From Paraspadella gotoi (taxonomy: Eukaryota > Animalia > Chaetognatha), in NCBI GenBank assembly GCA_051294375.1, contig CM119267.1, positions 9,449,709 through 9,513,708 of the forward strand: 64,000 bases of DNA, given 5' to 3'. The notes under the pieces are model-generated. The model ran no database searches. It saw nothing but the letters and a program-made list of their open reading frames with translations, and was not told where the DNA came from. A program made the position numbers and the translations under genes. Shown piece by piece: positions 12,182-59,443 of the stretch (the stretch's first letter is position 1; the number at the start of each line of letters is the position of its first letter).

Positions 12182-13788
12182 ATGCTTCCTCTTGTTATAC
12201 TACTCCTGGTTTTTTCGTTGGTCGATGGCGGAGCGATCCCAAGCAAGGAGCACAAACCGTTGAATATCCCGCTCAGCGAGAAAGAACACTATAATGAGGA
12301 AGATCACAATCCGGGTAATAAGACAAAAGACAAATGTTGCTTATTAGCTTTGACGCTGTCATAATTGATGACTCGACAGATTTCGACCACGAAGCCTTTA
12401 TGGGAGAGGAAGCCAAAGCGTTCGACGACTTGACGCCCGAGGAAAGTAAGGAGAGACTCGCGGTAATAATTGGAAAAATTGACAAGGACAAGGACGGGTT
12501 TGTGGTCGAAAAAGAGCTTCAAGAATGGATCCAGTACACTCAAAGACGCTACATTTACGAGGCACGTAATCCTGATTTGATTTTATGACGTGAATTTTGA
12601 CGTCCCTAAGTAATATCTCTCCGTATTGCGAGGCTGATATTATTCGTATGGACGTAAGAAAATTCAAATCTTCTTGTAATTTATTGTCAATATGATATGA
12701 TATGATATGATATGTCAATATTTTTCTTAGGATGTGGAGCGACAATGGAGCAATTTTCATAAAGCTGACGAATCTAAACTTTCATGGGAGGAGTACGAGA
12801 ATACAACCTATGGCTTTCTGCACGACGGCGAAGGCTCGGACATGGCCGACTACGCTGAGATGATTTCCCGAGATAAAAACCGATTCAAATCTGCCGATCA
12901 AAACGAGGACAATGTATTAACTCAGGTCTTGTTTTAAACCGTTTTGTCCGCTCCTTTCATTTCCGTTGATTATCTTTTTAACATTGCGCCTTTTCTTTCA
13001 GGCCGAGTTTTCCGATTTCCTCCATCCCGAGGAGGCCAAGCACATGAGAGACATAGTGGTGCACGAAACGATGATGGATATAGACAAGGACAAGGACGGC
13101 TTCGTTTCCCGCGATGAATACCTTGCCGACATGTATCATCCAGACCCCGAGTCCAAGGAGCCAGAACCCGACTGGCTAGAGAGCGAACGGGAACAATTTG
13201 CGGAGTACAGGTATGCATGTTATTGAACGTTTATGAAATTTTTATTTTTCCATTCTACTTCACTAGGACTCGCGGCACAAATAAAAATAGATAATACTGA
13301 TGACTAATGCGTAAGCTTTTCGTGCTTCTCACCGATTTCTCGTGCCAATTGAACTTTATATTTAAAGCACCAGGAAAAAAAATCGTTTTATTACGTAACT
13401 TAAACTTCGACCCATCCACCAATTCTATATTTATATTGAATATAAAATGTTCCATTGATAGAAATTAACGTAAAAGTAAAACCTCTTCCTGGCAGGGACA
13501 AGAATAAAGACGGAAAAATGGACTTTTCGGAGGTGAGAGACTGGATAATTCCTCCCGACTACGATCACTCCGACGCAGAAACGAAGCATCTCATTTTCGA
13601 GGCCGACGCTGACAAGGCGAGTCGATTCTATTTTTAGTTGCGCCGCGAGTACTCGCGAAAAATTAACCTCTTTTTGTTTGTAGGATGGAAAACTGACGAA
13701 GGAAGAAATTCTCGAAAGGTACGACGTTTTTGTTGGAAGTCAAGCCACGGACTTTGGAGAAGCATTAATGCGTCACGACGAGTTTTAA
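12182..13788 (+). CDS. CALU: Calumenin / CREC-family EF-hand ER protein, 6 exons (two GC-AG introns)
   Basis: Signal peptide, [24 protein letters not shown] hands DKDKDGFV and [27 protein letters not shown] and C-terminal HDEF*. Confidence 0.93.
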
Positions 13789-14175
13789 GCAATCATTGGT
13801 CGTTTCGTTTCGACATTACAAAGGCAAAGCGCCCAATTTATGCACTCGCACTCGTTTATTATCGTACAAATTCTATTAGTAGTAGACATCGCTAGTCATT
13901 ACGAGAATAATTTCGTATATAATTTTCACATCAGGCTATTAATGGTTTCATACTAGTGTTGCAAAATTTAATGCAAGTACGAATCTCAATGAATTTTGTT
14001 CGATAATTTCAAAATTTTTATTTCAATTTATGCTGATTCCATATTGTTTTTGATTATTACCACACTTGTTACATGAGATTTATTGAGTGTTTACTAGCTT
14101 TTTAGTCATGTCTTAATAAAACTTTTGCATCTCGAATCACATGAATTCCGATCTTCAATACGTTCCAATTAAACT

Positions 14176-14847
14176 ATGCGTAACGTTCCAAGCACGCGGA
14201 GCGTGACTTCATTGATTCAGAAATCTTCTGTTGGAAAGCTCATTTCTCGAGGATGGAGCAAATACCTAAGACTGCTGGACGATCGTCCTATCATAACTAC
14301 GACGTTTTCTACCGCATTTCTCTTCACCACCGGAGATATCTTGGCTCAGAATTTGGTAGAACGGCGATACTCACACGCGCCTTGGGACGTTCAGCGGACA
14401 ATACGGGTGGGTTGCGTCGGTCTCGTCTTCATGGGACCGTCCTACGCGATTTGGTATCGCGGATTGGACCGCTTCATCCGAGGCTTCGCGATGAAGCAAA
14501 CGTTGATGAAAGTCGCCTTAGATCAAGGCATCATGGCTTGGGTTTTTTGCGCCTGGTTCGTCATGGCAAACTCTGTATTTTCCGGGAGATCGTTGACGGA
14601 AGCCTGGAACGATTGGACTGTCAACATGAGAGACATCATGGAAGCTAACTACAAGTTGTGGCCGGCGGCTCAAATGTTAAATTTTTATTTGGTTCCTCCT
14701 CATCATAGAGTTCTTTTCGTGAATCTCGTTTCTATTTTCTGGAACACTTTTTTGGCGTGGAGTTCTCATCGATGCCAATGTCCAAAGAATTCTCCCCTGC
14801 CCCTTCCGGATTCTAGTCAGTGTATACTTTGCAAGACTCGCAACTAA
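14176..14847 (+). CDS. MPV17: Mpv17/PMP22 family membrane protein, single exon
   Basis: GDILAQNLVERR, WYRGLDR, KVALDQ, NYKLWPAAQMLNFYLVPPHHRVLFVNLVSIFWNTFLAW motifs. Confidence 0.88.
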   Translation: MRNVPSTRSVTSLIQKSSVGKLISRGWSKYLRLLDDRPIITTTFSTAFLFTTGDILAQNLVERRYSHAPWDVQRTIRVGCVGLVFMGPSYAIWYRGLDRFIRGFAMKQTLMKVALDQGIMAWVFCAWFVMANSVFSGRSLTEAWNDWTVNMRDIMEANYKLWPAAQMLNFYLVPPHHRVLFVNLVSIFWNTFLAWSSHRCQCPKNSPLPLPDSSQCILCKTRN

Positions 14848-15916
14848 TTTTTTTTAAAAAATGTTTTCTTCAAGATTTAAGAGAAAGTCGTAGTATTAGT
14901 TATAGAAAAATCTTTTCATATCAGAAAAAATATTAGTACTTTTGAAAACGTTATTACTTTTCTCAGAATTAATTTACAATTTCCCGAAAAACCATTGTTT
15001 AAGTAAATTTCACTATTGCTTGAAAAATTTGTTGGGTTGTAGGAGTTAATAATTTTAAAATATATAGAACTGCCCTTTTTTATCAAACCCAAAATAGCGA
15101 ATGCTAAACCCCTGTTTAACGGTTAAAAGGCGCCAAAAATTGTTTTCTCCTATGGACTTAATATAAGAAAGTTTTAAACACCTAAAGTTCTTGACGTTCT
15201 GCCGCTCGCCTATTAAATTTGCGTTGTTCAAAATATAAACATAATTTCCTTTTTCCCAGGATCATAGCATAAAGCACCCATAATATTTTATCAGAAATAC
15301 TAATGTCGCTTTTTAACTCCTAAACGACTCGAGTGCCTTTTAATTGTATGCCTTCGAACAAGAATTTGTTGTCCAATTTGGTGTTTGATTCATTGACTAC
15401 ATATCAGATGAATTCGCATGAGCGAAGATTGAATTGAAACATGTTTTGGGTGAAGGTAACAACCCTTCAATCACAAAAAATATACGCTCATATGGTTATA
15501 TCAGTTTAATTTTTAGTGATTTAATTCGTTTTTTCGGTGTTGTGAAATATGTTTTGTAGTTTTAGAATTATACAGTTACAAATGTTATTGTTTGGGAATT
15601 GCATGAAGTAAAGTTTAACTTATATTTATTTCTGAAAGTATGATTCCTCTTTTTTGTTCCATTCCACCATGACCTAATTTAAATTTCGAAATCTTTATGG
15701 ACCTTTTGGATTTTTGCCTCAGTAGATTCGGTTCTGCCCCTTTAAATTCAAATATACATAGCAGTTAATTTTTTGGAAATTTTGTTTTACATTTTTTTAA
15801 AAGTTTACATTAGTCAGTTATTTCTATCACTTTTTTGTCTTTCATTCTGAAGTTAACCTTTAACATCAAGCTAGATTGAACAGTTTTTATATAATACTAA
15901 TCTTCATAAGTATATT

Positions 15917-16340
15917 AGCGGTAGCCATCCAAATTAAAATTTTAACGGGAACAGCATTAAACAAATCCATTATTGGTATTATTTATTGTGTTAAAATATC
16001 TTTTTGAAAAAATGTTCCAAACCATTAGTAATTCGCGAATTAAAATTATTATGTTGCTATATAATGTTAAAAAATCTTTTTGGATATTTTAAGCTTTTTC
16101 AATTGATTCTGATAGAGCTCAAAAAGTTAAGCAAAAAAAGTAATTATAACTTTTTAAAATTTTGATGTTTTATTACTAAAAATTAGTAAAAACCTTTAAA
16201 ATTATCGGATGATGATGATTTTTTATGGTTTTTCCAAATTTTGACCCACTTATCTAAATATTAAAAAAAAAATTGTGTAGACAACTTTTCATAAGCTATC
16301 TGAATCTGCTTTAAAAAAAATTGACATTTCCTATTTATAA
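15917..16340. repeat. AT-rich dispersed repeat (decayed transposon-like)
   Basis: 15917-16070 matches 55676-55820 directly; about 16090-16335 matches the reverse complement of about 49610-49735 and 49040-49190 (e.g. gattctgatagagct, acccacttatc, tagacaactttt, gctatctgaatc). Confidence 0.6.
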
Positions 16341-16779
16341 GTAAATATTAAAAAAATAATTACTCCTGCTTCTAGCCATTTTAAAAAATTTGGTCCATTG
16401 AAAGTTTTCTCAGAAATTGGGAAAGTTCCCAAATCAAACTTCTGATCCCACCCCATTACATAGATATATAGATATATAACTAATATTTAATTATATACTT
16501 GCCCTTTTATTTAAAAGTACTGATCACAATAAGTAGTTTAGTAAGTTTAGTTATGCACCACTCTGTATATCCGAGTGTAAGGTAATGAATCTAAATATCT
16601 ACTAGTCTTTTGTTTCATCTCGGATGTTAGTTTTGGGCCTTAACAGTAAAGTTGGTGGAGCTTGGAACAGCTTGCTGTTCTTCCTATTTTGAGATAAAAA
16701 ACTTGGATTAAATGATAGGGTCGAACGATTTATTCCGATCCTATTTCACAAAAAATACTTCACAAGTTAAAAAAAATTC

Positions 16780-17557
16780 ATGGCGCGCGTGGACTGCAAA
16801 GTAGTTCTCTTGGGACGAGAATACGCTGGTAAAACGAGCCTCGTGGAACGGTACCTCAACGACAGATGGCTGGGGGATTCCACTGTTTACCAAAGCACCA
16901 TAGGTAAAGTTTTTTAGCCGCGATGCAAGTCGGATTAATAAGGTGGCTTTGTTTCTGAACATTTAGGTGCTGTTTTCGGAGCCAGACAACTAAACGTCGA
17001 CGGTACCAATATCATCATGGGGATTTGGGACACGGCCGGAAGTGAGCGCTTCGAAGCCATGAGCCGATTGTATTATCGAGGCGCGAGCGCTGCCGTCGTT
17101 TGCTACGATATTACGAACAAGACGTCCTTCGATAGAGTCAGGTAAAATTCCTACTACCCCGCATTGCTTTGATCTCGATCCCATTTTTTTTATCGTTTCG
17201 TTTGCGGTATATTTCAGGTTTTGGGTGGACGAACTGCAAAAGCACGAGGAACAATGCCAAATATTTTTATGTGGAACCAAGTACGATTTGGTGCAAGAAA
17301 ACCAGAGCAAGAGACAAGTGGACTTCCATGCCGTCACCGACTTCGCCGACGAACTGGGGGAAAACGTTCGTGTCTACGAGACGTCGAGCAAAACTGGTTA
17401 CCGAGTTTCCGATTTATTTTGGGAGATCGCCGGATTTTACGTAAAAAACACCAACGTTAACAATAATTTGAGTCAAAGTCCTCCTGCGTTACGAGGAGCC
17501 GATTTGAACGAAAATCGGCGAAGTCGTTTCAGCGCTAATCGCGAATGCCATTGTTAG
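16780..17557 (+). CDS. RAB24: Rab24 GTPase, 3 exons
   Basis: [10 protein letters not shown]-loop, Rab24-type [14 protein letters not shown] (Ser in place of the catalytic Gln), GTKYD, ETSSKTG and a C-terminal CxC prenylation motif. Confidence 0.92.
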
Positions 17558-17627
17558 TCAAAAACAAATTCATTGCGTTCTTATCTTCTTTTGACACGAC
17601 CAGATTATTGACCTGAGATTACTTTTG

Positions 17628-17813
17628 GGTTAATTTTACTTTCGCCGACCGGGGTTAGGGTTAAGGTTGGGTTAAGGTTAGGGGTAGTTAGGGTTAGTTA
17701 GGGTTAGGGGTACTTGGTTAACAGGTTTTAGCGTTAGGGTAATTAGGTAATATTTTTTTAAAATTTTTTTTAAAAGACGCCCAAACCGCGGTCGGCGAAA
17801 ATTAATTTTAGCC
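17628..17813. mobile_element. MITE with GG..CC termini and 8-bp TSD (Merlin- or Mutator-like), internal degenerate TTAGGG tract
   Basis: TIRs ggttaattttactttcgccgacc / ggtcggcgaaaattaattttagcc; TTACTTTT on both flanks (17619-17626, 17814-17821); second copy inverted at 47196-47350. Confidence 0.75.
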
Positions 17814-18233
17814 TTACTTTTTATCGAGTGCCTTTTCTATCTTATGAGTCAGTTGTCATGCTGAGGCTAAGAGTGCCTTATAATCTCATATAACGTTCTT
17901 CTCGCAAACCGTTCTTTAACTAGTCCATTACCTTGTTACATTTAATGTTATCTATAATTTTAACGTTCCTGTTGTGATATTCTCGACGATGGTGATAGCT
18001 ACTGTTTGTAAAAGCGTCAAATAGTTTTGGGGTGTTGGAAGCCTTCGTTTTCAGATAATTTCGCGTATCTCGTTACATTTATTATAATTATGGTTATTCC
18101 GCTTAATGACATCATTTTTCAACTTGTTCTCATGATTTAGTTTATTCGTCTGATGATAAAATCCTAATGCTCGGGGAGATAGAGGAGGTCGGTTCTTAGA
18201 GCCTCCGCGCGCGAAAAATCTCTCGACTCCACC

Positions 18234-21200
18234 ATGAGGCGAGAATTTTTCGCCCCCGCTCTCGTCACCGCGGTATTCGTGACTGTTTGGACGATTTCTG
18301 CCGCTGGGCTTGAGCGACGACCTTCCCTCAACAGAGGAATTTCGCGTCACCCTTTAGAAAAAGTGTTTTTTCCTCTCGAGCGCGAAAAGTCGAAAGCGGT
18401 CGACATCGGCGAGCAATCGCGACTCAGGAAACGAGACGCAGTGGACGAGGACGAAATCGGCCGGTCACCGACGTCAACTGCTAAAAAAACTCCTGTGTTT
18501 TTTGACGCTGGTCCCGCTGGACTCGATAGCAAAGGTTAATTTCGATTCAACTTACTTGGAAGACTAGTATTCAAACAATTCTCTTGATTTTATCGATCCG
18601 TTTCTCTGCAGGAGCTGACGCCACTGAAACTGGAGGTTCACTTAAATTTAACAATCCAAAGTTGTTGGATTCGTTGGGCATTCAATCTCTTGAGGAATCG
18701 TACAAAGAAATTCATCAACAAGAATCGGAGGAACAGGAAAGACAGTTTTTGGGTGAGTTGTTGCGGTTTGACTGTTTCGCCGTAGTATATCTAAAATTCT
18801 CACTGCTAAAACTTGCTCCCTCAGGCGGTATCGTTATCGAAGACGCCGCCAGACACCTGGGGTCCTTCATGCGCAAGATTTCCAACGACGAACTACGAGT
18901 GACTCAAATGCAGAGCATCTTTGACTCTCTTTCCTACTCGTCAACGGAGTCATCGATCGCCGACCGCCTCGCCCACATTGTCCGCCAACTCGGGCTTAAA
19001 CTCCGACGTTACGCCGGCATCCTCGCAGCTAATCAGGCCGCCGTGCAAGAGCTTTACACCTCCTACTTGTGGGATCGCTCCGGCCAGATATATTCCGGGT
19101 TTTCACCATTCGGTGTGACGTCGTCCATTGGCGAAGCGCCAAAAGATTGCTGCCGTCTTCGAAGAAACTCGGACGTAGTCTGGTCCGACGCTTGGCAGAC
19201 TCATATCTCCACGGCACAGTCGTGCGACCTCGTCTCATCCTACGCCATCGACGAGCCGCTCTTCTCGCCCGGACGCAATCTCACGCACGTTTTTGGACAG
19301 AATCTCAGATGTCACCCCATGATCAAGTGGCAGTACTTTATTTCCATGCAAGGCCTTCATGTCGAATACCCGGCGCATAATTTCGACGCGTCGCGGGTCG
19401 CCTGCGACGAGGCGGTGCACGCCCGCCACCGAGATGTCTTCGTCGCGACCGTCATGCCGAGAAGAAAGAACGTGGTTGTGGTTCTGGATCAAGGCCACTC
19501 TTTGTCGCCTAATCAAATGGCGATCGCTAAAGCTGTCGCTCACCATGTGTTGTCGTCCTTGAGCGAAGAAGACTACGTAGGGGTGATCGGACTAGCGGAC
19601 AAACCTGAGTTTCCACCTGCCGCCTGCATGTCCGAAGGACTTGTCCCAATGACGTACGAGACGCGTTACCAATTGGACCGATTCATCGGGGGCCTTCGCA
19701 AAGTAAACGCACCTACTAACCATGCCATGGGATTTCGCAAAGCCTTTGAAATGATATGGCGTAGCCTGGGTCTCGGCAACGCAACTGAGGACCCCGACGA
19801 AGCGTTAATTATCTACATTAGCCGTGGACTGTTGTCCTCTCTCGCAGACGCTAAGGATATCATCAGCACCATCGCTTTGGAAAACGGACGAATGGGTCAT
19901 CGTGTCGTCATCAACACCTACGCCGTAATCGATCAGTCGACTCCGCTTATGTTCGAGAAAAGTTTCTTATTGGACATTGCGGAGCAGAACTTTTCCAAAT
20001 ACGCCGTCATGAAGCAGCATCCAGCGCCCGTTCGTAAGGGATTCATGGTGGCCGTCAACAGCACGGAAAATATTCACGCGGAAGTGGGCGACTTTTGGAA
20101 GGTGTTGTGGCGTCCAGGCGAAGGAGACGTGCCGCCCTCTGGCACCAACCGAGGGACCGGCGGATTGGGCGCTATTCCCCGATCTTGGTGGCCGGGAAAC
20201 AATGACGACGCTGATTCCGCGGTCTCTGGAAGAACCGCCGACTCGAGTATCAAGATGAGGTTTTCTTTGCCTCACGTCGACTCGGAGGGCGGAAGTGGAG
20301 GCTTGATCGTGAGCCTGAGTAAACCGGCTTATTATAACAAGCATGTAATCGGAATGGTTGGTCTCGACGTGCATTTGGGAGATTTGATGGCCGATTTGAC
20401 CTACTACTCCGAACTGACCTCACCGCCAACCACCTCACCACTCGAATCAAAAAAGATCGAAAAAATCGCCCCATCAATGGTTCCTCTTTCCTACGCCTTT
20501 CTCGTTGAGCTCAACGGCCTTGCTCTGGCGCATCCCACCTTTTCTCGGCCCTCGGAAATGACCGATCAACCCATGCATACGGATATTTCGCATTTTGAAA
20601 AAGTTGACGGATTTCATGAAGCACGTCGAAAAATTCTCTCGTTAGATACGGGCGAGCATTTTTTGCGCACGTATTCGAACAAAACGGGGGGCTCATCCTC
20701 GGACGGAAAAAAGGATAATACTAAAAAAATTTACGTCGTCCATTATGCATGGCAGCGTATTTCCAACTCTCCGTATATAATCGTCATTCGTACTGATTCT
20801 TTAATTGACATTGAGAGTGACCCGAGCGGTGGCCTCAACGTCGTCAAGCAAACTGCTACGAGTTCGAACCGCGGCGGGGGTTCTCTGGAGATTCTCAACC
20901 TTATGTACCACCGACTCGATCTGCTCCCACCTGATCGCTCAAAGGACCGGCTCTGCACTTATTTGAAGCAAATCGCAACATTCTCCACGTCGACAATGTA
21001 TCTTTCTCCAAATGCTTTTATTAAGCCTTTCGAACACTTAAAGGAGACCGAAACGTGGACCATGGTTCAAGGTTACACGGCGTGGCTTAGGGATAAGACT
21101 GGACTTTTGTCAAACCCGGGAATTCGTCCCGAGGTTCGTCCCGACGCTATCGCCCTCTCAAAGATCAACGGAGACTGGATGCAGGCTTATCACCACTCTC

Positions 21201-23311
21201 CGTTAAAGGACCATATCGTTCGAAGATATGTGGCAACACCCACGGGCGTTTTAAGAATGTTTCCAGGGACTTTGCTCTCGAAACGATACAACCCTCTCGA
21301 GCAAAGATGGTACACGAGAGCTTTAAAGCACCCGGGTCAAGTAGTTTTTACCGGCCCCTACTTGGACGTAGGTGGAGCCGGTTATGTAGTCACGTTGTCG
21401 CACACCATTTACGAAGGAAGATCGGCGTCGCTTCACAGTGCCTCTGATCCTGTCGTAGCCGTTATGGGTCTCGATTTCACTCTTCACTATTTCTACAAAC
21501 ATTTGCAAGAGCTCTTTCCTTTCTTGTGCAAGCACTCGAGCAGTATTCGATGCTTTATTCTCGACGATTCGGGATATTTAATCGCTCATCAAGGCCTCAT
21601 AGATCCCAACGGTAAAGGTCCCGTCGAACAGCAGCATATAACCCATAAGGAACCGCTGGTAGCCAACGATATCCTTAACCACCGATGGTTCGTCAAGAAG
21701 CAACTTTGCAATTCTTACAACGACAGAACCATTCAGCGATTTTATAAATTTAACACTTCCCACGACGGAGTTTTGACAAATCTGGTTCACGGCGAGCATT
21801 GCGCCAAATATCAAGTGACACACATTCAGGGAACAAACTCGTTCCTAGGAATGATAAACCAGACTTGTTCCATGATCACAGCGTTTTGCCCTTGTTCTAT
21901 GATGGACCGTCTCTGTCTTAATTGTCACCGAATGGAACAGAACGAGTGCGAGTGCCCCTGCGAATGCCCACTGGAGATGGACTACTGCACGGGGGACATA
22001 CTGAAGCGCGAGAATTCTAACGCTCCTTGTTCTCGTTTCCCGTCTTCGCCATTTTTAGCGACGCCCAGCATTTCTTCCTCTTCTAATCTGTACTGGAAGT
22101 CGACCCCTCTCCCTCAGTGCAATCCTCGTGAATGCCAGACTCGTCTCTCGAAGGACGATTGTTTCGCCGTCCTGGATTGCGAATGGTGCGAAATCGAGAG
22201 CGACGGTTCCCAAATCGAGTCTCCCTTTTGCGCATCACAACGCATCTGTTTTGGCGGCGTGCGTGGGGCCCGTACTCCTTATCGGGACGAAATTTCTTCC
22301 TCTCTTCCCAAATCCGGACTGGGCGAACCGGGCGGCGCCTCACCATCGACTGGCGTAGGTCATCGGGCCTTTCCTGGTGTTCGCTCCGCGCCGGTGGGTC
22401 CCGTGGCAGGCGGAATCATGGGCTGCTTCCTGGTTCTGGCAATCGCCGTGTATTGCTACCGTCATCACGTAGTGCAATCGCGATACGCTCACGCTTACTT
22501 GAGCGCTCAAATGGGAAACGGATCCTCCGATTTGCGCATGAACGCTCTCGAAGAGCTTCCTCCCGATATGGAGGGACCCGTCGGGGACGGCGACGGCGAT
22601 CCACCGTCGGGCGGAATCGGAAATACCAATTTTGTGCTTGCCACTTTCGAGAATCCAATGGCTGCCGCCGCCATGTCGCCTTATCGCGTCAACACGTCTC
22701 CTCGTCGACCACTCGGCGGCGAGAGTGACTATGGTTACTCTACTATGACGCCCCATGAAGACACAGATCAACAGTCGCAGGCTGACACGGTGACTGGATC
22801 TCGTGAGCGCTATCACCCTTCCTTGGCGATTCCTCGCCCTTCCTCGGGCGGCCAACCCCGAATTACCTGCAATCCTCAACTCGCCGTTCTTCCATCTCCC
22901 TACGCGGCAGTACCCGCCTCTCCCATCCCGCCGCCGCCCGCAACGCCTTCCGTTTCTTCTCTTTCGACGTCGACGTCGCCTATGGACGGCGTTTTGACGA
23001 GTAAAGACCTCGTTTACTCTCTCCAACAACCATCTGGGGTTGCTTCTTCCGCAGAAAGCGCGGGATGTCCTTCCATTTCCAAAGACTCTGGCATCGGGCC
23101 ATATACGCTTCCGCCTCAATTGAAACAAAAGTACGCGAGACAATCTGAAGCAGGGCGCGAGAGGAGCGACGTCAAACCAAAAAATGATTCCTTGCGCGAT
23201 GGTAATGCCTTCGAGACCATTACGGACCCCTCTGTTACGGTTATTTCAAATGTCTCGGAATCCTGGAATAAAGTGCTGGCTGACGTCACAGTTCATCCGG
23301 AGCCGTCGTAG
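18234..23311 (+). CDS. CACHD1: VWFA and cache domain-containing protein 1 (alpha2delta-like), 3 exons (18234-18535, 18612-18752, 18825-23311)
   Basis: Signal peptide, VWA (KNVVVVLDQGHS), cache domains (PYLDVGGAGYVVTLSHTI, HITHKEPLVANDIL), Cys-rich CHRMEQNECECPCECP, TM GPVAGGIMGCFLVLAIAVYCYRH and cytoplasmic GYSTMTPHED. Confidence 0.93.
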
Positions 23312-24983: not shown

Positions 24984-25871
24984 ATGACGGAAGTAAACAT
25001 TTGCTTGGCGTGTGACCGTGACTCGCCTCAAGCAGCCGACATTCCGGAGCCGAGACACCTCGTAACTCCCGGCGACCTCATTACGACGGATCCAGGGTTT
25101 ATGCGCGGCCACGGGACCTACGTCGACAACGACCGACTACAGTCCTCCGTCGCCGGCGTCGTGGAGCGAGTCAACAAGCTCATACGCGTCGAGCCATTGA
25201 AAACTCGTTACAACGGCGAAGTGGGCGATGTGGTGGTTGGTCGTGTCACCGAAGTGACGCAAAAAAGATGGAAAATCGAGACGCACGCCCGACTCGACTC
25301 CATACTACATCTCAACTCGGTCAACCTCCCTGGCGGTGAATTGCGCCGTCGGTCCGACGAGGATGAGCGAATGATGCGCGAGTATCTCTGCGAGGGTGAC
25401 CTAATCAGCGCCGAAGTGCAGCAGGTTCACGCCGACGGCGCCCTTGCCCTTCACACCCGCAGCTTGAAGTACGGAAAGCTGGGCCAAGGGATCCTGGTCA
25501 AAGTCTCTCCCTCTCTCATCAAACGGCGCAAGTCTCATTTCCACAGCCTCCCCTGCGGCTGTTCCATCATTCTGGGCAATAACGGCTACGTCTGGATATA
25601 CCCCACCGTCGCCGGCGACGAAGCGAACACCGGGGGATTTTATCAGAACCTGCAACCGGTCGAACTCAAAGACCGGGAAACCATCGCCAGACTCAGGAAT
25701 TGTGTTCTCGCCCTGGCCGATCACAAGATGATGCTCTACGATACTTCCGTCTTGTACGCCTTCGAAGCTTCTTCCGGATACGAAGCTCGAGAACTGCTGA
25801 AACCCAAAATCAAAGAAGAGATATTCAGGGACACGCTACAGAGGCTCGAAGTAGAGGGATTCGTCAATTAA
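24984..25871 (+). CDS. EXOSC2: Exosome complex cap subunit RRP4, single exon
   Basis: LVTPGDLIT..FMRGHGTY, RYNGEVGDVVVGRV, SVNLPGGELRRRS, LHTRSLKYGKL, KRRKSHFH, ILGNNGYVWI. Confidence 0.96.
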   Translation: MTEVNICLACDRDSPQAADIPEPRHLVTPGDLITTDPGFMRGHGTYVDNDRLQSSVAGVVERVNKLIRVEPLKTRYNGEVGDVVVGRVTEVTQKRWKIETHARLDSILHLNSVNLPGGELRRRSDEDERMMREYLCEGDLISAEVQQVHADGALALHTRSLKYGKLGQGILVKVSPSLIKRRKSHFHSLPCGCSIILGNNGYVWIYPTVAGDEANTGGFYQNLQPVELKDRETIARLRNCVLALADHKMMLYDTSVLYAFEASSGYEARELLKPKIKEEIFRDTLQRLEVEGFVN

Positions 25872-25937
25872 TACATTTTTCGCCGACTGATTTTTTCCAT
25901 ATTTGTTTTGTTAAATATTCGGTTTCCTTTTAAGGTT

Positions 25938-28900
25938 ATGGAACCGAAGGTCTTAAAAAGTACATTAAAGAACGCCCGAGAAGCGGTGAAAAATAAAAAT
26001 TATCAAGAAGTTTATAAACTCGCGAATGAAATTTTACAGCATGACCCTAAAAATTATCATGGCCTCGTCTTTTTGGGAATTTCTTTGCCCGAAGTGGACC
26101 CTTCCGCCGTCAAGGCCGCCGTCGACTCTTACAAGGAAGCGGCCGTTGTAAGTCCCGATCAACCGCTGGCTTGGCAAGGGCTCGCCACTCTTTATGAAAA
26201 GAATCCGATAAAAGTTTATCAGGAAGCTTGTGTGAAAGTTTATGAAAGACTCATGTCGATCTACGAAAAGGCGGGCGGAGAAATCATGGAAAAGTATTTC
26301 GAAGTCGGCATCAAATTGGCCAAACTTCACCTCAATCGCAAGAACATGCTCGGAAGCGCGGAGATGTTCGAAAGCCTCCTTAGCCGCTCGGAGTCTGAAA
26401 ATGTGGTGCCAAGAAGAGCGAAAGTGGCGAAAGTCGCCTCGGATTCTCTCGGTGCACTCATCGAGCAACTGCCTAAAGAGCAAGGGGCGTTCGTTGAAAA
26501 AATATTCATGACGCTGGTCACGGACGACGCCTTGGACGAAAGCGAGAAGCTTCCTTACTACGAACGATTGATTCGTGCCATGATCAAAAACGGACGAGAT
26601 GCAAAAGACGTTGTCGGTATGACACGCGCCATGCATGCCAGCTTCCCCGATACCCGATTTCCCCTGGAGATTTTAATTCACTTCGAGTTGAGTCTAGGAT
26701 TGGAATCACTTCCGGATCTCGATAAACTCGAAGAGCTGAGAGATGAAATGCGAGCGGTTAGTCCCGACTCGTACCTGATTCGTCTAGTCGACGGCGTAGA
26801 TTCCTTCGCAACGAAAAACTTTCTCCGGGCGCGAAACGATCTCAAGGCTGGCCACGACGCGATCTTCCCGAAAATCCACGTCCCGGGAGCGGTGTTTTTG
26901 GCTAAAACGTACAACGCGGTCCACGACCATCCCGCGGCACTCGCGATGGCCAAGACGGTCAAAAAGTATTTGCACGATTCGGGAGGAGACTCGGACATCG
27001 AGTCGGCCTTTGTCTCGAAGCAACGTATCATTACCTCCCTTGATTTGATCGTGGCTCATGCCACTATCGAGGGCGGCGGCTCGGAAGAAGATATCGTTTC
27101 CTCCATTAGCGCCTTGCAGGAACTGATGGCGGACGCTTCGAATAAGTCGGCCGATCCCTTGTCGGCTTTCGGTTTTTCCATCCTCTCGGAGGAAAGGATC
27201 GAGGAAGTTATCGGTATGGCGAAGGCTAACGGCCTTGAAGGGAACGGGAGTTTGTTGATCTTGGAAGGCGTTTTAATGGTTAGACGGAAGCGTTTCGATT
27301 CTGCTCTCGAATTATTTTCTGCTGCCGTCGAGATTAACCCAGAGAACGGTCAACATCATTTTTGGCGAGGAAGAGCGATTTGGGAGAAGGTTGACGGAAA
27401 CGCGGAATTAGAAGAGTGTTTCTCCGAGCTTCTGTTGGCTGCCAAATTGGATCCTTACTACAGTCCGACGTTTCTATATCTCGGCCATTATTACGCGCGA
27501 ATACAAGAAGACGAGGGAAAGGCTCTTAAATGTTACCAACGCGCTTTCGAATTGGATAACTGCAATTCGGAAGCCGGATCAAATTGTGTAGACCTCATGG
27601 TGGCAATCGGGCAAAGCGAGCAGGCATTTCAACTTGTTCATGGTGTCACCAGATCTCTTGCGCCTGATCGTGCCAAATGGGCCTGGCTGCGCTTGGCCGT
27701 TCACTACCTTAATGTTGGAGAAAACGACGCGGCCGTCATGACTCTGCAAGATCTTTTAAAGGCGGATTCCGGAGATTGGATAATCTGGGAATGTCTCGGA
27801 GAGGCGTACACTAACAGAGGCTCGTACATGGCCGCTTTAAAATCTTTCGAACGCGCACTCGAATTGGAGCCTCAAGCTTCGTTCAGCAAATTTCAAAAAG
27901 CGCGAATCAAACAATTGACGGGCGCCTTTCTCGAAGCCAAAAATGATTACCTAAAAATGCTCGACGATGACGACCCCGATTTTATCCCTGCCCTTAAGGG
28001 TCTCGGAGAAACGCTGATCGAATTAGCCAAGATCGCTCTCAAACACTTTTACAATGGCAAGGCGGTTGACTTGTGTCATATAGCTATCGAAAAACTCACC
28101 CACGCTGCGTCCCTGAGACCTGATCTAGTCTGTGTTTGGAAGTTGCTAGGAGACGCTTGCACTCTTCTTCATATTGTTCCTGACCATCTTTGTGAAGTGC
28201 GCCTGCCGGCCAAGCTGGCGCACGACCCAACCGAAACGCAGCGGACTTGGCGCGTTCGGAAAACCTTCGCTTTTCAGACGACCTGGGATTCCGGAGAAGC
28301 TTCGCCGGATTGGAACGAACCGGCGGACACCATCGACGAGGGAGCGGCTAAAGAACAAAGGGTCAGGACGAAGAGAAGGAGAGGGGCCAAAGAGGATGAG
28401 GTAAATGGATTTGTTCTTTGAAATTTGATATTGATTGAATTGAAATTATTAATATAAAACGATAAAACGACTTACCACTGTTATCAGCACATTACCAATT
28501 TTAAATTTTGTGAAGTAAAGAGCGTTAAGATTTTTGGTAGAGCTTTATTCGTTGTTATGAAATATATTAATATAATAAAGATAAATAAATAATAGAAAAA
28601 ATTGCACTTTTGTTCATTAGCTTTACATTTACAAGATATTTCTTTAATTTTAAACTCTAGCCTCCCTCGGATCCAACTGGCGAAAAAGTTATTTCTAAAC
28701 TAGGACTTCTCTTTATCGGAAATCGATGTTATCGACGCGCGCTAAAACTCCAAGGGAAAGAGGACGCTGGACTACTTAGCGATCTAGCGTACAATTACTT
28801 CGCCCAGAGCGAACTCGTCTTGGACGAGGATATCACCGCCAAACGGGATCTGGCGACTAACGCTCTTGATTTATTAAAAGAAGCTGTGATAATTGATCCC

Positions 28901-31900
28901 TACAATCACCTATGTTGGCTCGGATTAGGTCTGTAAGTCGGTGACTACTGACTAAGTATATTTTTTCTGACAAAAAACATTTAATGATTTTCTGTCCTTT
29001 TTGAATAAAGGAACCGTTGCATCTTGCTCTCCCGATCCTGTGCGGCAGCTGCCTTTGGCCCAACACGCCTTTATCAAATCCATAAATGTGGAAGCTAACA
29101 ATCCCGTAGCCTGGACAAATCTTGGCGCTCTTTATTTGTTGCACGGACCCAAGGACAAAAAGTTGGCTCATTTGGCTTTCAAAGCTGCTCAAAACCTCGA
29201 TCCGGGGTAAAAGTAAAAAAGTGATGAGCATTGACCAGGGATTCTACATTTATATAATATTATGAAAATTTGCAAAATTACTTGTTTCACTATTTTATTT
29301 TTTTATATTTTTTTATAAATGCTTTACTATTTAATCTATATTATTTAATGAAATATATATTGATTTTTAAAAATGTTATACTTTTCATTATATCTATTTA
29401 TTTAATTTTATATTCAGCTACGTCGGTGGCTGGGTCGGACAAGCTTTAATCGCTGAAAGTATTGGAGATCCCGAAGCCATGGACCTTTTTCGCGTAACCG
29501 TCACAATGGAAAATAATTCTATTCACAGTGAAGGACTCCTGGGTTACGGTCACTGGGTTTGCAAGATGTTGTTGCGCAGAGGAAAGCAGAACCGGTGAGA
29601 TTTATGTATTATTGATATTACAATCAAACAAAATAGAAGGAAATCTGTTTTGCCAAAATGAACCACTAATCTCAGCTGTTTGCTGTTAGATCCGCGGAAG
29701 ACCTAAATGATTCGTCTTGTCTCCCCGAGTTTCATCTTCGGTACATCTTCGAAAAAATGGGCGCGATTCACGTGGCTGCCGACGCCTTGACAAAGTTTTG
29801 CGACAGGTATCCCGAGCACGTCCCTGCCGCCACCATGCTGAGTTTGCTACAAGAGCGACAATTTCTCAAACAATCCGCGGCAAATGGCTTAAACCGCGCT
29901 CTTGAAAGTCTTAAAGGTTGGCTAATTATTGTTTTTTATACGTAATTATATGCAATTTGACGCATTCATTAACAATTACTCATTGCTTCTAGGAATCGGT
30001 CTCGCCGTGAAGAAAGAACTAGAAATAGTTGGGTCCAACTTGGCACGCGTACTTTGTTCCTTGAACAAGAGTCACGAAAGTATTGTTCAGTACAAACAAT
30101 TGCCCGATATTGAAAATAACTTGTTTCAACTAGCCGGATTCGGCCTCGCACTCTTCAAATCGGGTACAGACGACAATTTGCATACGATCCATTTATTTTC
30201 ATTTCTTAAAGTAAGAAGCCTGCTGAATTCTATTTGTTTTTGTCAAGGACAACTCATGGAATCTTACGTCGTTTTCGAAAAATGTTGCGAACTCGCTCCG
30301 GAACGCTTTGCCGCATGTCTGCAAGCCTGTCTTGGCATGGTATCTCACAAGTACAACGATATTGAGGGCGCCAAAACCTGTCTCTTTAAATGCATCGAAA
30401 TCGATCGTAATTTCTTGCCCGGGCTTGTGGCTCTCGCTTCAACCGGTGTGTGAGAATGTTCGGCTATCAATAACCAGCTTTAATTTAATTAGTATTTATA
30501 AATTGAGTGGTTTTTGTTCATAGGCCTCATTCATGATGACCTCGATTTATGTATGGCCGCCTTAGAAGAATTATTAAAAGCATCGGCTCTTCCCGAATCG
30601 ACTGTAGTTGAAGTGGCTCGGCTTTTTGCTCCTCTTTTGATAGAACATGGGGACTATAAAAGTGCGAAGGCAAGTACAAGTAGTTTACGTTTTGGAATCC
30701 CAGTGTTAACTATTTATAAATACATTCAAAGTAAATCGTTAAGTTATTTTTTTGTTTAGAATCACATACAAAAGGCTATCAAAAAGTATCCTTCGTCTTC
30801 AAAATCGTGGGCATTTTTGTCTCAATTTATACTTCGGTATTCGAAAGGTATTTATGTTGTGATTATTGTAGTGATATTACATCAATGCAGCTTTTTCTAT
30901 CTGATAGTCCGTATTTTGTAAAATTATTTTAGACGAGTGCGCTCTCGCGTCCGTTGCGGCACGGAGCGCTCAAGCCGTCGACGCCAAGAACGATGAAGCC
31001 GTTTTGTTGGAGAGTCTCGGAATGCTGGTCGGCGCTTCGCCGCTTGAACCGCCTCTCTCTGATTCTAGAAGGCGGGCCAAACAATCCAAGTCTGCCATCA
31101 TGGCCGCCGCCAAAGCCGTCCATTTGCATCCTGACAAATCTGAATCTTGGGCCTCGTTAACCGGTAAGATATGTTTCTTTAGTTTCTTCTCTTTTTCTTT
31201 CCATTCAAGTATCTTGTTAAATAAGTTATTCGAATACGTACATCAAGTATTCAGCTTTAAATGTTTTAATTTTCAAGCATTAACTAACATTTCGAGCATT
31301 TTAATTTATCAATATTAGCACCGGTCCTACTTTTAAATTCGATGCAAAGTCAGAATTGGGAAAATAGTTCCGCATTTGTTAATTTGAATTTATTCTTTAG
31401 CTTCAACTTATATGATGGACGTACTTCACCGATTATCTTCCTGTGATACATCTCTTGTTAAAGAGGGTGCAACTCTGGCCGCTTCACGATCAGCCTTTGC
31501 AATTGCCGCTTCAAAATCTTCAAATTTTCTTTCGCAGGTGGGTACGCATTAAAATTTCTATAGAATTATGGTATATCTATGTATAAATAAAAAGGTAAAG
31601 TTATAGACAAGTTTAAAAATATATTGTTTTTAGGTGTCGTCAAACAACCGGATGTATTCCTTCATTGGAAAACAGCACGTGCTCAATTTAATTCGATCCG
31701 GTGGAGATTCATTGAGAGAAGCGAAAAAAATTATAAACGTTCTTCAGGAAGGAAATAACTTGGAGACGATGGGCCCTATTCTTTCTCAGTTGGAGGTCCT
31801 CGTAAATAAGGGAATAAGTAATCGAACCGTCGAATCCTTCAAAGAAGCCGTTAATTGGGATAACGGCCTCTTTGGAAAGCAACTGCTCCTTCAGATTTTC

Positions 31901-32526
31901 TCTCATACGAAGGCAGATAAGGTAAATTTTTTTTCCTATTTCACTCTTTATGTCAAAATCGTTGCTAATTTTTTTAAAAATATTTTTATGTCAGGAGATT
32001 GAAGAGCTACTGCAGTCCTGCGTATCGAGTGACCATCCATCGAAACTAATCTTTTGGTCACTTATTCTCGTAAGGGCCTTCTCGGATCTATCTCAAGCTT
32101 CAGATCCATTCACAGCAAAGACACCCGAAGCGCAGAAATTGCTTGACCTGATTTCTAACTCCCACTTCAAAGAGTTGGAATCAAATCTGGTTCATCTTAT
32201 TTGTGGAATAGTTCTCTTTAAGTCCAACATCAAACAGGCTCAAAAATACCTGTTCAAAGTAAGTAAAGAGTCTATCACAGTGGTTTCTCTTTCTTTTACT
32301 ATTTCCTTTAATTAAAATTCCATGCTTTTTAAAGGTTCACAATGCCAATTTTCCACCTCCTATGTCGGATGTGCCGAGGAAAATTGCTCGACGACTGTTA
32401 ATCAAAGTATTAGCAGGAAAAAAAGAAAAAGAAAAGGTTTCTTTAGCATCCTTGCTAAAGGTAGCCGTAAAAGACGGTGATAAAGAATTTGTTGCAATTT
32501 ACGATAACATTGTTCCTGCCATTTAA
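25938..32526 (+). CDS. SKIC3: Superkiller complex TPR scaffold SKI3 / TTC37, about 14 exons (first exon 25938-28400)
   Basis: MEPKVLKSTLKNAREAVKNKNY, PDQPLAWQGL, LLAAKLDPY, AKWAWLRL, WECLGEAYTNRGSYMAALKSF, RPDLVCVWKLLGDAC, LAQHAFIKSI, AWTNLGALYL, EAMDLFR; stop TAA at 32524-32526. Confidence 0.92.
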
Positions 32527-32778
32527 AACATTTTGCTGTGATTTTCTACTTTTGTTTGATAATAAACCTAATTAATTTATTTCGATATTTTTTTTAAAAA
32601 AAAGGTGAAACTTAATAGTAACTTAAAAAGTTTTTACAACTATTATTAATTAAAAACAAAAGCTAGATATTTAGTTTTATCTCTATTGTTGACAATTCGT
32701 GCCAGTTGCGTATTGATCGAATTTATTCCCCAGTTTTGTGATTTTAATAAAATTTCGAACTGAATTGAAGTTATAATC

Positions 32779-34216
32779 ATGTCCGCATCTCGCGTCCCCG
32801 AGCAACTTGGCGCGCAATCCAGCGTGGCGCTCGGAATCAATTCTGTTCCCCAGCAAGTCTCGTATTACGCTCCCGTTCCGATCGGAATGGCACCTCAACA
32901 GGTGTCCTACCAGAATAACGGCATCGCTCAAAGCATGTTGTTGGCGTCGGCCTCTACCGGTGCATCGGACCCGCGTTCCACGGACGGCCATGTTACGCAA
33001 GGCGGAACCTGTTTTCCGAAGCGCATCTTCGTCGGCGGTTTTCCTGCCCAGACGACGGAAGCAGAGCTCAAGCATTATTTTTCCCAGCATGGTTCCGTCA
33101 CTGAGACCAAAATAATCCAAGATCGCGCTGGTGTTTCCAAGGGCTACGGGTTTGCCACCTTCGAAACCGCTGAAGAGGTCAATTCTATTCTCGCCAAAAG
33201 TCAGAAAGAGCCGTTTATTTTTAAAGACAGGAAGTTGAATCTTGGACCCGCCATTCGCAAGAATACTGCTCCTACTGCCGCGACGGGGCAAATCCTTATG
33301 TACGCGCCAAACACTGTTCCGATCAACAATGAGGCCGGACAGACTGTCTTTATGACCGGTATATAGGCGATTGATGTTTTCGATGATGTTACTTCGTTTT
33401 TACCTTTTTGTCATTTAAACACTGTCAGCACCCACGACTATGCAGTTGGCGGATGGGGCATTCAGCCCTTATCCTACGGTTCCGCTTGTAGCAACAGCTG
33501 GGGCTCCCGCCTTTTATTTGCCTCAGCAATTGTGCTACATGCCGCAGCAGCAAGTGGCTAGTGTCAATGCTATTCAAGTTCCTCAAACTATTCAGGTAAT
33601 CGTACTCTCCTTTTAGTTTTGTTTAGCCCTCACTTTTGAGAAGTCTTCTGTGATTAAAGTTAATTTATTTGCGCCCACTTTTCCGTCATATTAGGCTTCT
33701 ACTCAGCAAACGTCGTACCATTTTCGAAGCACGCCTCAGAGCCCTCCTACTCCTGGCGGGTGCCCAATAACTCCAGTCAGTTGTCATTTCACGCCCGGGG
33801 CGCCGTCTTCAACCTCCGACTTCTACAGCGGAGACTTCGATTCGAACCAAAATGAAGAAACCAATAGCTCAACTTGGGGAACCTTTTCCTGGGGATCGCA
33901 GATGACCTATCCCTCGACGGAAGTCGGCGGCGTTAACCTTGCCCGCGAGCTGGATGCCGCAGCTGATCCATTTACTATTCCCGATCCTCCAATCTCTTCC
34001 TCGACCCACGATCCTAAACCGGAAGTAAAGCTCAGCGCGACGGTCAAAAGTGGCGGCAGCGGGTACGTTAGTTCCGCCTCCAGCAACGCTAGTCTCTATG
34101 GGAACAACAACACCAACAATAATAATACCAACGGCAATGATGAAGCTTTGGTCGGGTATCAAAAGTCGGGGGCTCTCGCTGGAGGTATCTCGACGGCGGA
34201 TTGGAGCTCTTTTTAA
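32779..34216 (+). CDS. BOLL: BOULE / DAZ-family germline RRM protein, 3 exons (32779-33358, 33429-33595, 33695-34216)
   Basis: DAZ-type RRM: PKRIFVGGF (RNP2), IIQDRAGVSKGYGFATF (RNP1), RKLNLGPAIRK; followed by a P/Q/Y-rich region. The C-terminal exon choice is less certain. Confidence 0.88.
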
Positions 34217-36336: not shown

Positions 36337-41078
<4,742 letters not shown>

Positions 41079-41694
41079 TCATATTTTTGTTCCGTATTAG
41101 TCCGTTCATGTTGTTCCCGGTATTTTATTTTACTTCATAGTTGCTCATAATCTCTATTTTTATTACTTCAAGTGAAGATTCAAGTAATCCTATTTTAGGA
41201 CAAGTAGAATTGAGGTATTAAATACCAACGGGGCAATTATGACGTCTCAGAGTTTTGACCGACCGGCAAGTTTTAGAACTTATTAAATTTTAATTAAAAC
41301 GATCCAGTTTGTAGAATTCATCATTTGTTAGATTTACTATTTGCAAATTGAATATATAATTATATATTATATATCCTTCATATTTTCATCAGAATTATGA
41401 TGCTTCTAAGGCTTTGTTTTAAGATTGCCGGATTGTTCATTTCTTGCAATATCATTTCTTCATTTGGAGGAAGAGGGCCACAGATTGGCTTCTTTTGTTT
41501 TAGAATTTCGAGTTTTTGTTTATTTAATTAAAGGAAAGTTCCTTTTTTGTTTTCTAAAAGATTTTTCCGAGTTTTCTCTTTTTAGTCACACCGGGTTCTA
41601 ATAATCCGTAACAGTATTCGAGAATTCCTTAATAGTAAAAATGAAAAATCATCCCCATCTTCTTACAGCAGAATTTGTCGGTCCCACCCCAACA

Positions 41695-42122
41695 TCTTTT
41701 CGGTAAGTTACTGAGATCATGTCAGAACATCGAATTAAGATGTATTATGCAAAAAAATCAATGTGCGTCTTTGCTTGTCCATCCATCCGTCTGTCCCTTC
41801 TTAGCTTTAAACGCCAATTACTATTTAGTGGAGTGGGCGATTTATTTGAAATTTTGTGCATGTGTAAAGTGTGTGAATGAGCTGGTAATAAGTTTCGATG
41901 GAATCGTCCAAGTGGAAATGAGTTTAAAACGGAAAAAAAAAGTTTTACTATTTGATTATGCTTTTTTTAATATAAAAAAAGCAAATGTAAGCTGAATTGA
42001 TATAAAAATATAAGATCAAAATTAATTAATTAATTAATTAATTATTTAAATAATTATCTGATCAGCTGCTTACAGCTTATGGATCGTTGGCAGATCTGGC
42101 ATTGTTTGCTAAAACTTGTTAA
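41695..42122 (+). mobile_element. Possible HINE/DINE-like non-autonomous element
   Basis: Internal GTCCATCCATCCGTCTGTCC microsatellite, atttatttgaaattttg block and 3' end ..ctaaaacttgtt resemble Helentron-associated elements; only one copy in the window. Confidence 0.3.
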
Positions 42123-42339
42123 ACTTCCTTGCTTCCTTCCTTTCTTACTGTAAGGGAGTGGATAGGGTTCCTTAAAATTTTTATCACGTTAGTATCCTCT
42201 CGATTTCTTGTTTATTCATCTATTTTATTTAAACAAATTGAAAAAAAAACATTTTTTCATAACCCGGCTGGTTAGAACATACATTATTCCTGACGGTTTG
42301 TATTTTTTTTTTGATACTTTATTTGTAGTTCAAAAAATC

Positions 42340-43186
42340 ATGAAATCAAAGAAACTGTGTGAAAAACAATTACTTCTCAATTTTTTATATTTTTCGCTCA
42401 TTTGCAATTGCGGAGTCTGCCTTGCCGATTCTAGCCCATCCGACAGGATCTTGACGAAACTGGCCGACGAGGGCGCTGCAGCAGTCGTCGAAGCAGTCAT
42501 CACCGAGGGACTCCAAGCCTTTACGTCGAGCGTCATCGAAAAGGGAGTCAAATTCGTCCAAAACAATGAACAGGCAAAAGATTATCTTAAAACTGGACTA
42601 GACATTGTTAAGGCCCTCGATCTCGACCAAGCCGCCGTCGACGACTGTCATTTCTCGTGTCCATCAAAACCCGAAGGGATTCCCGGTACACTTTATAATT
42701 TTTATCAATTAATAAACAAAAGTTTAAAAATAAAATAACAAAAGAATTGACATTTATTAAATATTGAAGGACACATACCATCAAAATACTGTTATTAATG
42801 TGCGACTACGCTATTTACAATTTAGTTTCGCCTCAGGTCGTATGTTTCGAAATATCCACCATCGTCCTTCCTCTAACGGTTGCGGGAGCTACGGTATACA
42901 CTTTGACGACCCCGATCTTCCCGCCGTCACTTCCTGCTGCGACGCCCACGATTTTTGTTATGACGAATGCGGTCACAAAAAGTTGGAGTGCGACGCCCGA
43001 TTCAGTCATTGTTTGAGCGAGGCCTGCGAGAAGGAGCCGGCATCTGTTTCGACCGGACTCGAAAAAGGCGAGAGGCGTCCTCGCGAAGACTGTGCACTAC
43101 TCGTAGAAGGACTCCAGTTGGCCGTTGCGTCGCTCGGTTGTCAGTCCTTCCTTAATGCTCAAAAAGAGGCCTGCGTTTGCGTTTGA
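42340..43186 (+). CDS. PLA2G12A: Group XII secreted phospholipase A2, 2 exons (42340-42685, 42837-43186)
   Basis: Signal peptide, CHFSCP, NGCGSYG Ca loop, CCDAHDFCYDEC with the catalytic His-Asp, CDARFSHCL, LGCQSFLNAQKEACVC. Confidence 0.88.
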
Positions 43187-43371
43187 CATGTTTGTGCGAT
43201 TTATTTTTTAATGGTTTCTTGCTGCTATATTTATTTGTTATTACAATTATATATATTATTATTATGAATGTATGTAATGTTTTTACCCGATGTGATATTG
43301 AGAAAGACAGGCGATTCAAAATCATCACGTTAGTTATTTATTTACCTCAGCAGTAAAAGAGTTTCTTGGTC

Positions 43372-44214
43372 ATGATGTCCACAAAAACAAAGATTAGTCG
43401 GCCGACTGCCACCGCTCGTCCGCCCTCTATCGTAGTTAGGGTTGAGAGCGTAACGTCGGTGTTCGTCGTCCGGCAACGCCTCGATCTGACGGAGGTCGCC
43501 CGCCTTTGCATCAACGCAGAGCTCCGTCACAATTGTGTCGAGATCCGATTGAAAAAGCCTCGAGTAACGGCTCATCTCTTCGTTAAAGGCAGCGTTAACG
43601 TTATGGGCGCCTCGAGCGAAGATGATTCCCGGACGGGCGCCAGGAGGATCGCCCGCATGCTGCAGCGTGTCGGCATTCAATACGTTCGCTTCCGACGTTT
43701 TCGCGTTGTCAATATCAATTCCACCTGCAGGTTGCCTTTCGCCGTCAGTCTCGAAAAGTTTTATCGTCTGTACCGCGAAAAACACCCGAAAGACATCGAA
43801 TTTTTTCCCGAATTGGCCAACTATGTCAAGGTCACGACCGAGGGGGCCAAGCTGCATATTCACTCCACGGGAACCGTTCAGATCTTCTCCGCTTCCACGA
43901 GCGCCATCTCCTCCGAGTTGCGGACGATCTTCCCCTTGCTGCTCGGTGCTAAGGCGTCGACGAGCGCTCCAACGCCGACGAATCCTGTCATCAAGCGAGC
44001 GAAGGAGGACGACAGCGACGACAGCGACGATGAGCCTGACGAGAGTAAACGTGAAGATCGTCGACGTATTTTGAATGAAGCCGTCGCGAGGTTTGCTCAA
44101 CTTGGTCCGGACGCATTTTCTAGCGACGAAGACGACGAAGAAAATGAAGCCGAGGATTCACGCCTCTTGGATAAAAACGCGAATTACGTCGGATACTTGG
44201 ACAGCGACGATTAG
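43372..44214 (+). CDS. Divergent TBP-related factor (TRF2/TBPL1-like) with acidic C-terminal tail, single exon
   Basis: Two TBP-like repeats: RLKKPRVTAHLF..GASSEDDSRTGARRIARMLQRVG and FRVVNINSTCRLPF..FPEL..AKLHIHSTGTVQI; GARR.AR.LQ and C.LPF are TRF2/TBPL1-type motifs. Confidence 0.8.
   Translation: MMSTKTKISRPTATARPPSIVVRVESVTSVFVVRQRLDLTEVARLCINAELRHNCVEIRLKKPRVTAHLFVKGSVNVMGASSEDDSRTGARRIARMLQRVGIQYVRFRRFRVVNINSTCRLPFAVSLEKFYRLYREKHPKDIEFFPELANYVKVTTEGAKLHIHSTGTVQIFSASTSAISSELRTIFPLLLGAKASTSAPTPTNPVIKRAKEDDSDDSDDEPDESKREDRRRILNEAVARFAQLGPDAFSSDEDDEENEAEDSRLLDKNANYVGYLDSDD

Positions 44215-45910: not shown

Positions 45911-59443
<13,533 letters not shown>

Follow-up and report, generated by a model that had tools for sequence, protein, structure and literature searches.

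RRP4 and SKI3 as close neighbours in a likely chaetognath operon of Paraspadella gotoi

Operons whose genes lie only a few bases apart, together with the spliced leaders that their messages carry, are already described from chaetognaths (PMC2481426; PMC12460157; these and the other papers cited by PMC number, and the Logan preprint, are drawn on in excerpt). In Paraspadella gotoi 18% of the genes are operonic, with 1,470 validated operons called at a distance of <250 and a longest operon of 9 genes (PMC12460157), and in the RPS14-PCNA operon of Spadella cephaloptera the poly(A) site of RPS14 and the acceptor of PCNA are 3 nt apart (PMC2481426). The junction considered here lies in a 64,000-nt stretch of P. 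gotoi DNA (assembly GCA_051294375.1, contig CM119267.1, positions 9,449,709 to 9,513,708 of the forward strand; hereafter the window), where the gene for the exosome subunit RRP4 (EXOSC2) is followed by that for SKI3 (TTC37). On balance we consider it probable that the two are neighbours in a likely chaetognath operon, that their RNA is likely split by a leader at the AG before SKI3, and that they stand side by side probably by chance.

The locus resembles the published chaetognath operons in its head-to-tail order, its very short gap, a leader ending in TTGTTTAAA and its mixture of housekeeping and germline genes (PMC2481426; PMC12460157), and differs from them in joining two genes of one pathway and in that the leader was not seen at the SKI3 acceptor. 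The run of genes to which it belongs numbers 15, with many gaps >250 nt, against 9 in the longest Paraspadella operon. For the operons of Ciona, trans-splicing has been proposed to make the upstream 3′ end, giving a branched product and two mRNAs that are perhaps mutually exclusive (PMC1488885). With the no-gap operons of Ciona intestinalis and the SL1-type operons of C. elegans (PMC1488885) the locus shares little intercistronic room, an upstream gene lacking AATAAA and, if a contig that crosses the spacer may be so read, unresolved dicistronic transcripts; unlike them, RRP4 has a variant AATACA at 25870 and with it a possible earlier poly(A) site, and the zero gap here is only putative. The operons of Oikopleura dioica hold loosely related genes, of housekeeping and germline type, that are rarely conserved together (PMC11067885); like the present run they string several genes head to tail, and they belong to a different phylum with a different leader. 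At the protein level the bridge of the SKI238-exosome assembly is SKI7/HBS1L3 (PMC13271354; PDB 7QDR, 9G8O, 4BUJ); both window proteins are full-length orthologues of parts of this assembly, and in the animals checked their genes are not adjacent.

A search of literature listings found no publication describing an RRP4-SKI3 operon, which the Paraspadella operon table of PMC12460157 may list; six gene names looked for in three supplements of that paper were absent from them. The junction is real and tight, and adds one more to the operon junctions of chaetognaths. It offers a test case for how an upstream mRNA gains its 3′ end at a tiny gap, a question raised since Ciona (PMC1488885), and for whether animal operons ever hold pathway partners together by selection. 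Should the pair prove to be shared by chaetognaths at large, it would stand as a rare animal case of a functional operon in the bacterial style.

The junction and its acceptor

The RRP4 protein carries the Pfam domains RRP4_S1, KH_6 and ECR1_N, that is the N-terminal, S1 and KH domains of the RRP4/EXOSC2 family, and is ~70% identical to its best named matches. The first exon of SKI3 matches structures of human SKI3/TTC37 (E 3e-94) as well as yeast Ski3 (E 7e-23), and the coding sequence (CDS) with introns joined by script gives 1681 aa with 0 internal stops, ending at 32526 and aligning end to end with invertebrate TTC37 as a full-length TPR scaffold of that family. Twelve of its introns are joints in transcript contigs (see below), the 13th (32259-32334) having been placed by inspection. 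The intron at 30670-30759 is of the GC-AG type and is among those joined in the contigs. Residues ~760-830 of SKI3 (window ~28215-28700) form a charged, low-complexity stretch of ~70 residues, present in a spliced contig and unaligned with 4/5 of the homologues compared.

The original prediction of a U-rich 66-nt spacing devoid of AATAAA holds, with the RRP4 stop at 25871, the SKI3 ATG at 25938 and 35 T among the 66 bases (53%; GC 0.29). None of the other 13 stop-to-start distances in the window is as short, the closest being 155, 185, 217 and 252, and the pair falls within the <250 bp same-strand adjacency used to call operons in PMC12460157, where distances run between gene models rather than between CDS ends as here. 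Beyond what had been predicted, the present analysis found the AATACA at the RRP4 stop, a stop-free spacer in frame with both genes, and a run of 15 genes on one strand (Table 1).

Table 1. Features of the junction and of the surrounding genes (window coordinates)
Feature	Position	Strand	Remarks
Upstream run: DAD1 (end), TFIIB, DEGS1, GBF1-like Sec7, EF-hand calumenin-like, MPV17-like, Rab24-like, CACHD1-like	1..23311	+	Pfam domains
TFIIB acceptor with leader tail TTGTTTAAA	399..423	+	transcript contig, tail directly before base 423
RRP4/EXOSC2 CDS	24984..25871	+	intron-free, 295 aa, stop TAA; domains and matches
Variant poly(A) signal AATACA	25870..25875	+	overlaps RRP4 stop; U/GU-rich tract after it; weak
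Spacer	25872..25937	+	66 nt, U-rich, 22 sense codons in frame with both reading frames
Likely SKI3 trans-splice acceptor	25913..25934	+	AAATATTCG, pyrimidine tract, AG 25933-25934
SKI3/TTC37 orthologue	25938..32526	+	14 coding exons, 13 introns, 1681 aa, ATG at 25938
Boule-like RRM gene	32734..34216	+	transcript contig begins at 32734, directly behind an acceptor AG
Downstream run: piwi, PLA2G12, TBP-like, coronin (end approximate)	36337..58406	+	minus-strand CH-domain gene next

The likely acceptor of SKI3 contains the sole AG of the spacer, preceded by a 76-nt AG-free stretch. Scored with a matrix built from 30 introns of the window, this AG reaches 8.3, the highest of the 49 AGs between the two start codons (the second scoring 0.1), and lies at or above the gene-start AGs at 423, 1929 and 32734 (5.0, 6.6 and 5.1, respectively). 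The 9-mer AAATATTCG occurs twice on the plus strand of the 64 kb (1909-1917 and 25913-25921), before the DEGS1 and SKI3 acceptors and 20-22 nt ahead of the gene-start acceptor both times, and is possibly a branch-point motif. The motif AAATAT is found near 3/4 gene-start acceptors against 2/30 introns (p 0.006, post hoc); as this motif was picked after the fact and the fairer count of 5/14 gene starts gives p 0.06, its enrichment is suggestive at most. Ordinary cleavage of the RRP4 mRNA is plausible because of the AATACA at the stop and the U/GU-rich tract that follows, a case weakened by the 19% of shuffled sequences that hold some variant poly(A) signal.

Transcript contigs and the spliced leader

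The RNA evidence comes from a sequencing run (X1) that was seen as contigs only, in which 92% of the sampled words of the window are present and which is presumed to be RNA; such Logan contigs derive from a simplified graph (Logan preprint). A spliced X1 contig of 5896 nt includes the spacer in an unbroken piece, 25096-28398, from which it continues along SKI3 to a predicted end at 32534, 12 SKI3 joints being listed for it and 11 further joint rows existing. With 2 differences over 25096-28398, the contig argues against a misassembly at the junction, which had been raised as a way in which the pairing might fail. As a control, X1 was matched to positions 1-19000, where an 11,427-nt spliced contig spans DEGS1, GBF1, the calumenin-like gene and MPV17, and thus three junctions. 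Since these unrelated neighbours are bridged too, bridging is generic and no special mark of RRP4-SKI3.

Leader addition is seen at TFIIB, the second gene of the run, where 9 nt (TTGTTTAAA) that are non-genomic at that place follow the acceptor AG in one of 6 loose ends displayed from a total of 21. A match of this type is expected by chance at ~7e-4 for 21 loose ends, and comes from one contig of one run. The same 9 nt end chaetognath leader forms 2, 3 and 4 (Table 3 of PMC2481426), and the tail thus points to leader trans-splicing of the chaetognath type. That the animal is likely a chaetognath is read from this tail and from the operon-like layout, the protein matches having included no named chaetognath. 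The leader is joined directly to the TFIIB ATG (414-423), giving an mRNA without a gene-encoded 5′ untranslated region (UTR), and the DAD1 stop lies 155 nt upstream. Within the 64-kb window no leader-gene start motif was found.

Three of the seven X1 contig starts listed fall after a well-scoring gene-start AG (423, 1929, 32734), one after a poor AG within RRP4 and three after no AG. The start within RRP4 is that of the bridging contig, 25096, which follows a weak AG (score -3.0) and stands 5 nt ahead of an in-frame ATG, codon 40; the AG (window 25094-25103) may be a cryptic leader site or may arise by chance. By bin arithmetic X1 coverage has holes at 24922-25095, the RRP4 5′ end, and probably from 36272 to ~36476, the piwi 5′ end. 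Such holes could be leader-linked branches lost in graph simplification, a hole in itself proving nothing. Two further runs (X2, X3) gave one short exact RRP4 piece each (233 and 166 nt; depth <5) amid repeat noise and were left unused.

Co-transcription with leader trans-splicing, as proposed in the original prediction, is the reading best supported by the TFIIB tail and by a SKI3 acceptor that scores like the other gene-start acceptors, a leader at 25935 being expected from both. The mechanism proposed starts from what the X1 contigs show, RNA across the spacer and a leader attached to TFIIB within this cluster. A single upstream promoter would drive RNA through RRP4 into SKI3, and the leader would join at 25935, leaving 3 nt ahead of the SKI3 ATG, as the acceptor and the TFIIB case suggest. 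The RRP4 mRNA would then end <=63 nt past its stop, whether cut downstream of AATACA or at the acceptor itself, two routes that are indistinguishable here, and two ordinary proteins would be made, in keeping with the conserved C-terminus of RRP4 and N-terminus of SKI3. Operons that collect housekeeping and germline genes would occasionally make neighbours of genes from the same pathway.

Several points weigh against this account. The GT-AG joints show that X1 contains spliced transcripts, and it may also hold DNA or pre-mRNA; since X1 consists of contigs only, possibly from such sources, the bridge is no proof of a single transcript. No leader-bearing X1 contig was found at 25935, the depth of the spacer bin, 132.7, being exactly that of the single bridging contig. 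Several gaps of the run are long (up to 2120 nt), and it may thus comprise more than one operon, arranged in tandem. As to chance, random order would place an exosome gene next to a SKI gene in 0.6-1% of genomes (taken among the 5061 candidate operonic genes of PMC12460157), and the 1.5-15 linked neighbours expected per genome, any of which a scan would single out, depend on assumed fractions, 0.05-0.5% of random pairs sharing a module. The pair also has the tightest gap of the window and lies next to boule and piwi, and related genes do occur together in some operons of C. elegans (PMC1488885).

Alternative accounts of the pair

The strongest alternative keeps the operon and the trans-splicing, and attributes the pairing to selection for joint expression of SKI and the cytoplasmic exosome in the germline, possibly together with piwi and the boule-like gene; we regard it as unlikely. 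Besides the low prior just given and the tightness of the gap, it can point to four consecutive genes of RNA metabolism (RRP4, SKI3, boule-like, piwi). Against it, the remaining 11 genes of the run are not obviously connected with decay and only 1/9 core exosome subunits is found at the locus, and the gap is so short that one mRNA may preclude the other, as has been argued for Ciona (PMC1488885). Nor does the adjacency recur in the animals checked. Synteny was assessed indirectly, comparing by eye the scaffold lengths of species found in both the RRP4 and the TTC37 match lists, none of them a chaetognath, and in 7/7 invertebrates (Acanthaster, Asterias, Lineus, Lingula, Glandiceps, Ptychodera and Mercenaria) the lengths differ, placing the genes on different scaffolds and giving no sign of adjacency in the kind of invertebrate survey that had been suggested. 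Among eight vertebrates, from which carp was left out for its several entries, five have the genes on different scaffolds, and the three that share one chromosome are cypriniform fishes in which the accessions lie 254, 697 and 1705 apart; in Garra rufa, a further cluster member, they lie 40 apart. A metagenome scan gave 17 loci, with near-full-length matches <=65% identical and no close relative among them.

Open reading frames (ORFs) for RRP4 from close relatives (80-86% identical) include 11 that are full or near-full, on contigs 967-1267 nt long that leave 94-370 nt to spare. They are a weak hint against selection for the pair, fitting full processing into a separate short RRP4 mRNA or else a different neighbour. 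The claim that RRP4 and SKI3 form a functionally coupled dicistron is accordingly not upheld, given the long run of mostly unrelated genes, the like bridging of unrelated neighbours, the absence of the adjacency in the other animals checked and the bridging of SKI3 to the exosome by SKI7/HBS1L3, and we favour chance over selection by about three to one.

It is improbable that SKI3 has a promoter of its own within RRP4, with the spacer as the end of an outron or as a 5′ UTR and the genes packed yet transcribed apart. Such an arrangement would agree with X1, where a leader at SKI3 was not seen, and monocistronic genes are also trans-spliced in chaetognaths (PMC12460157); the promoter would, however, sit inside a conserved CDS, and the cluster behaves like published chaetognath operons.

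The open spacer invites a more radical idea, namely that the TAA is read through on uncut RNA to give an RRP4-linker-SKI3 protein of ~2000 aa as a tether between SKI and the exosome, which if true would be a new way of coupling the two. The RRP4-SKI3 junction is the only one of 14 with a stop-free spacer in frame, here 22 sense codons, and in X1 this spacer is spanned by the spliced contig, none bearing a leader being found there. An open spacer is expected by chance in ~12% of cases for this length and composition, however, and its F/I/L-rich peptide is what a pyrimidine tract would be expected to encode. No stem-loop follows the stop (fold z -0.74), which has the context TAA-T; TAA is a tight stop. 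In all 15 sequences of close relatives that extend to its C-terminus, RRP4 stops at the same residue as here. None of 106 long RRP4 proteins matches SKI3, a search that is weak because its upper size of 2000 aa is about that of the predicted fusion, and the 120 TTC37 proteins listed, out of 605, gave no match to RRP4. We judge readthrough very improbable, and give as little credence to its widest version, in which RRP4, SKI3, boule-like and piwi would form a block for RNA surveillance in one operon, with the junction partly uncut and a readthrough tether bypassing SKI7/HBS1L3.

Least credible of all is the predicted cis-splicing from a donor in RRP4 to the AG at 25934, since the bridging contig has no joint between 25096 and 28398 (contigs do drop rare forms), no such protein was found in the protein searches above, and the candidate donor at 25425, best of the 44 GT sites of RRP4 (score 6.2, in the middle of the range of 30 real donors), which shares the phase of SKI3 and falls after residue 147 at the end of the S1 domain, is the one mid-scoring site that 44 would be expected to yield, with phase agreeing 1 in 3. 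Both the readthrough and the cis-spliced fusion are possible as minor forms only.

The long RRP4 gene models recovered in these searches merge unrelated neighbours, such as 6-phosphogluconolactonase in nematodes and nicotinamidase in Hymenoptera. Models with 6-phosphogluconolactonase come from eight nematodes of distant clades (P0258, P0280, P0285, P0293, P0301, P0302, P0306, P0311), which suggests that RRP4 and this enzyme are an old nematode operon pair. In an RRP4 tree of 21 rows the window protein groups with three relatives on a long stem, a placement that points to no phylum. Two short close-relative records (P0123, P0133) diverge after TELAQ, as if at an intron, and a loss of introns from RRP4, which is intron-free in the window, is possible in this lineage.

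The surrounding run of genes

The 15 consecutive plus-strand genes (window 1-58400) lead from DAD1 through TFIIB, DEGS1, GBF1-like, calumenin-like, MPV17-like, Rab24-like, CACHD1-like, RRP4, SKI3, boule-like, piwi, PLA2G12 and TBP-like to coronin, RRP4-SKI3 being one of their 14 junctions. Their Pfam domains were observed; the subfamily names are in part our presumption, and the RRM gene is one that we take to be boule-like. Gaps from stop to start range from 66 to 2120 nt, and 4/14 are <250 nt.

The boule-like gene adjoins piwi (32779-41078). The stretch 34446-36271 is covered by an X1 contig of similar depth and is likely a long 3′ UTR of boule, reaching to 12 nt before a candidate piwi acceptor; an ORF of 202 codons at 34372-34980, without a Pfam match, lies in this likely UTR as a small separate gene or a chance ORF. 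GBF1 and CACHD1 have very long single exons. Between CACHD1 and RRP4 (23540-24180) there is a multicopy repeat with inverted arms that resembles a miniature inverted-repeat transposable element, on which many divergent X1 contigs pile up. An intron of coronin holds two arrays of a ~28-nt tandem repeat, at 47400-48900 and 49860-51470.

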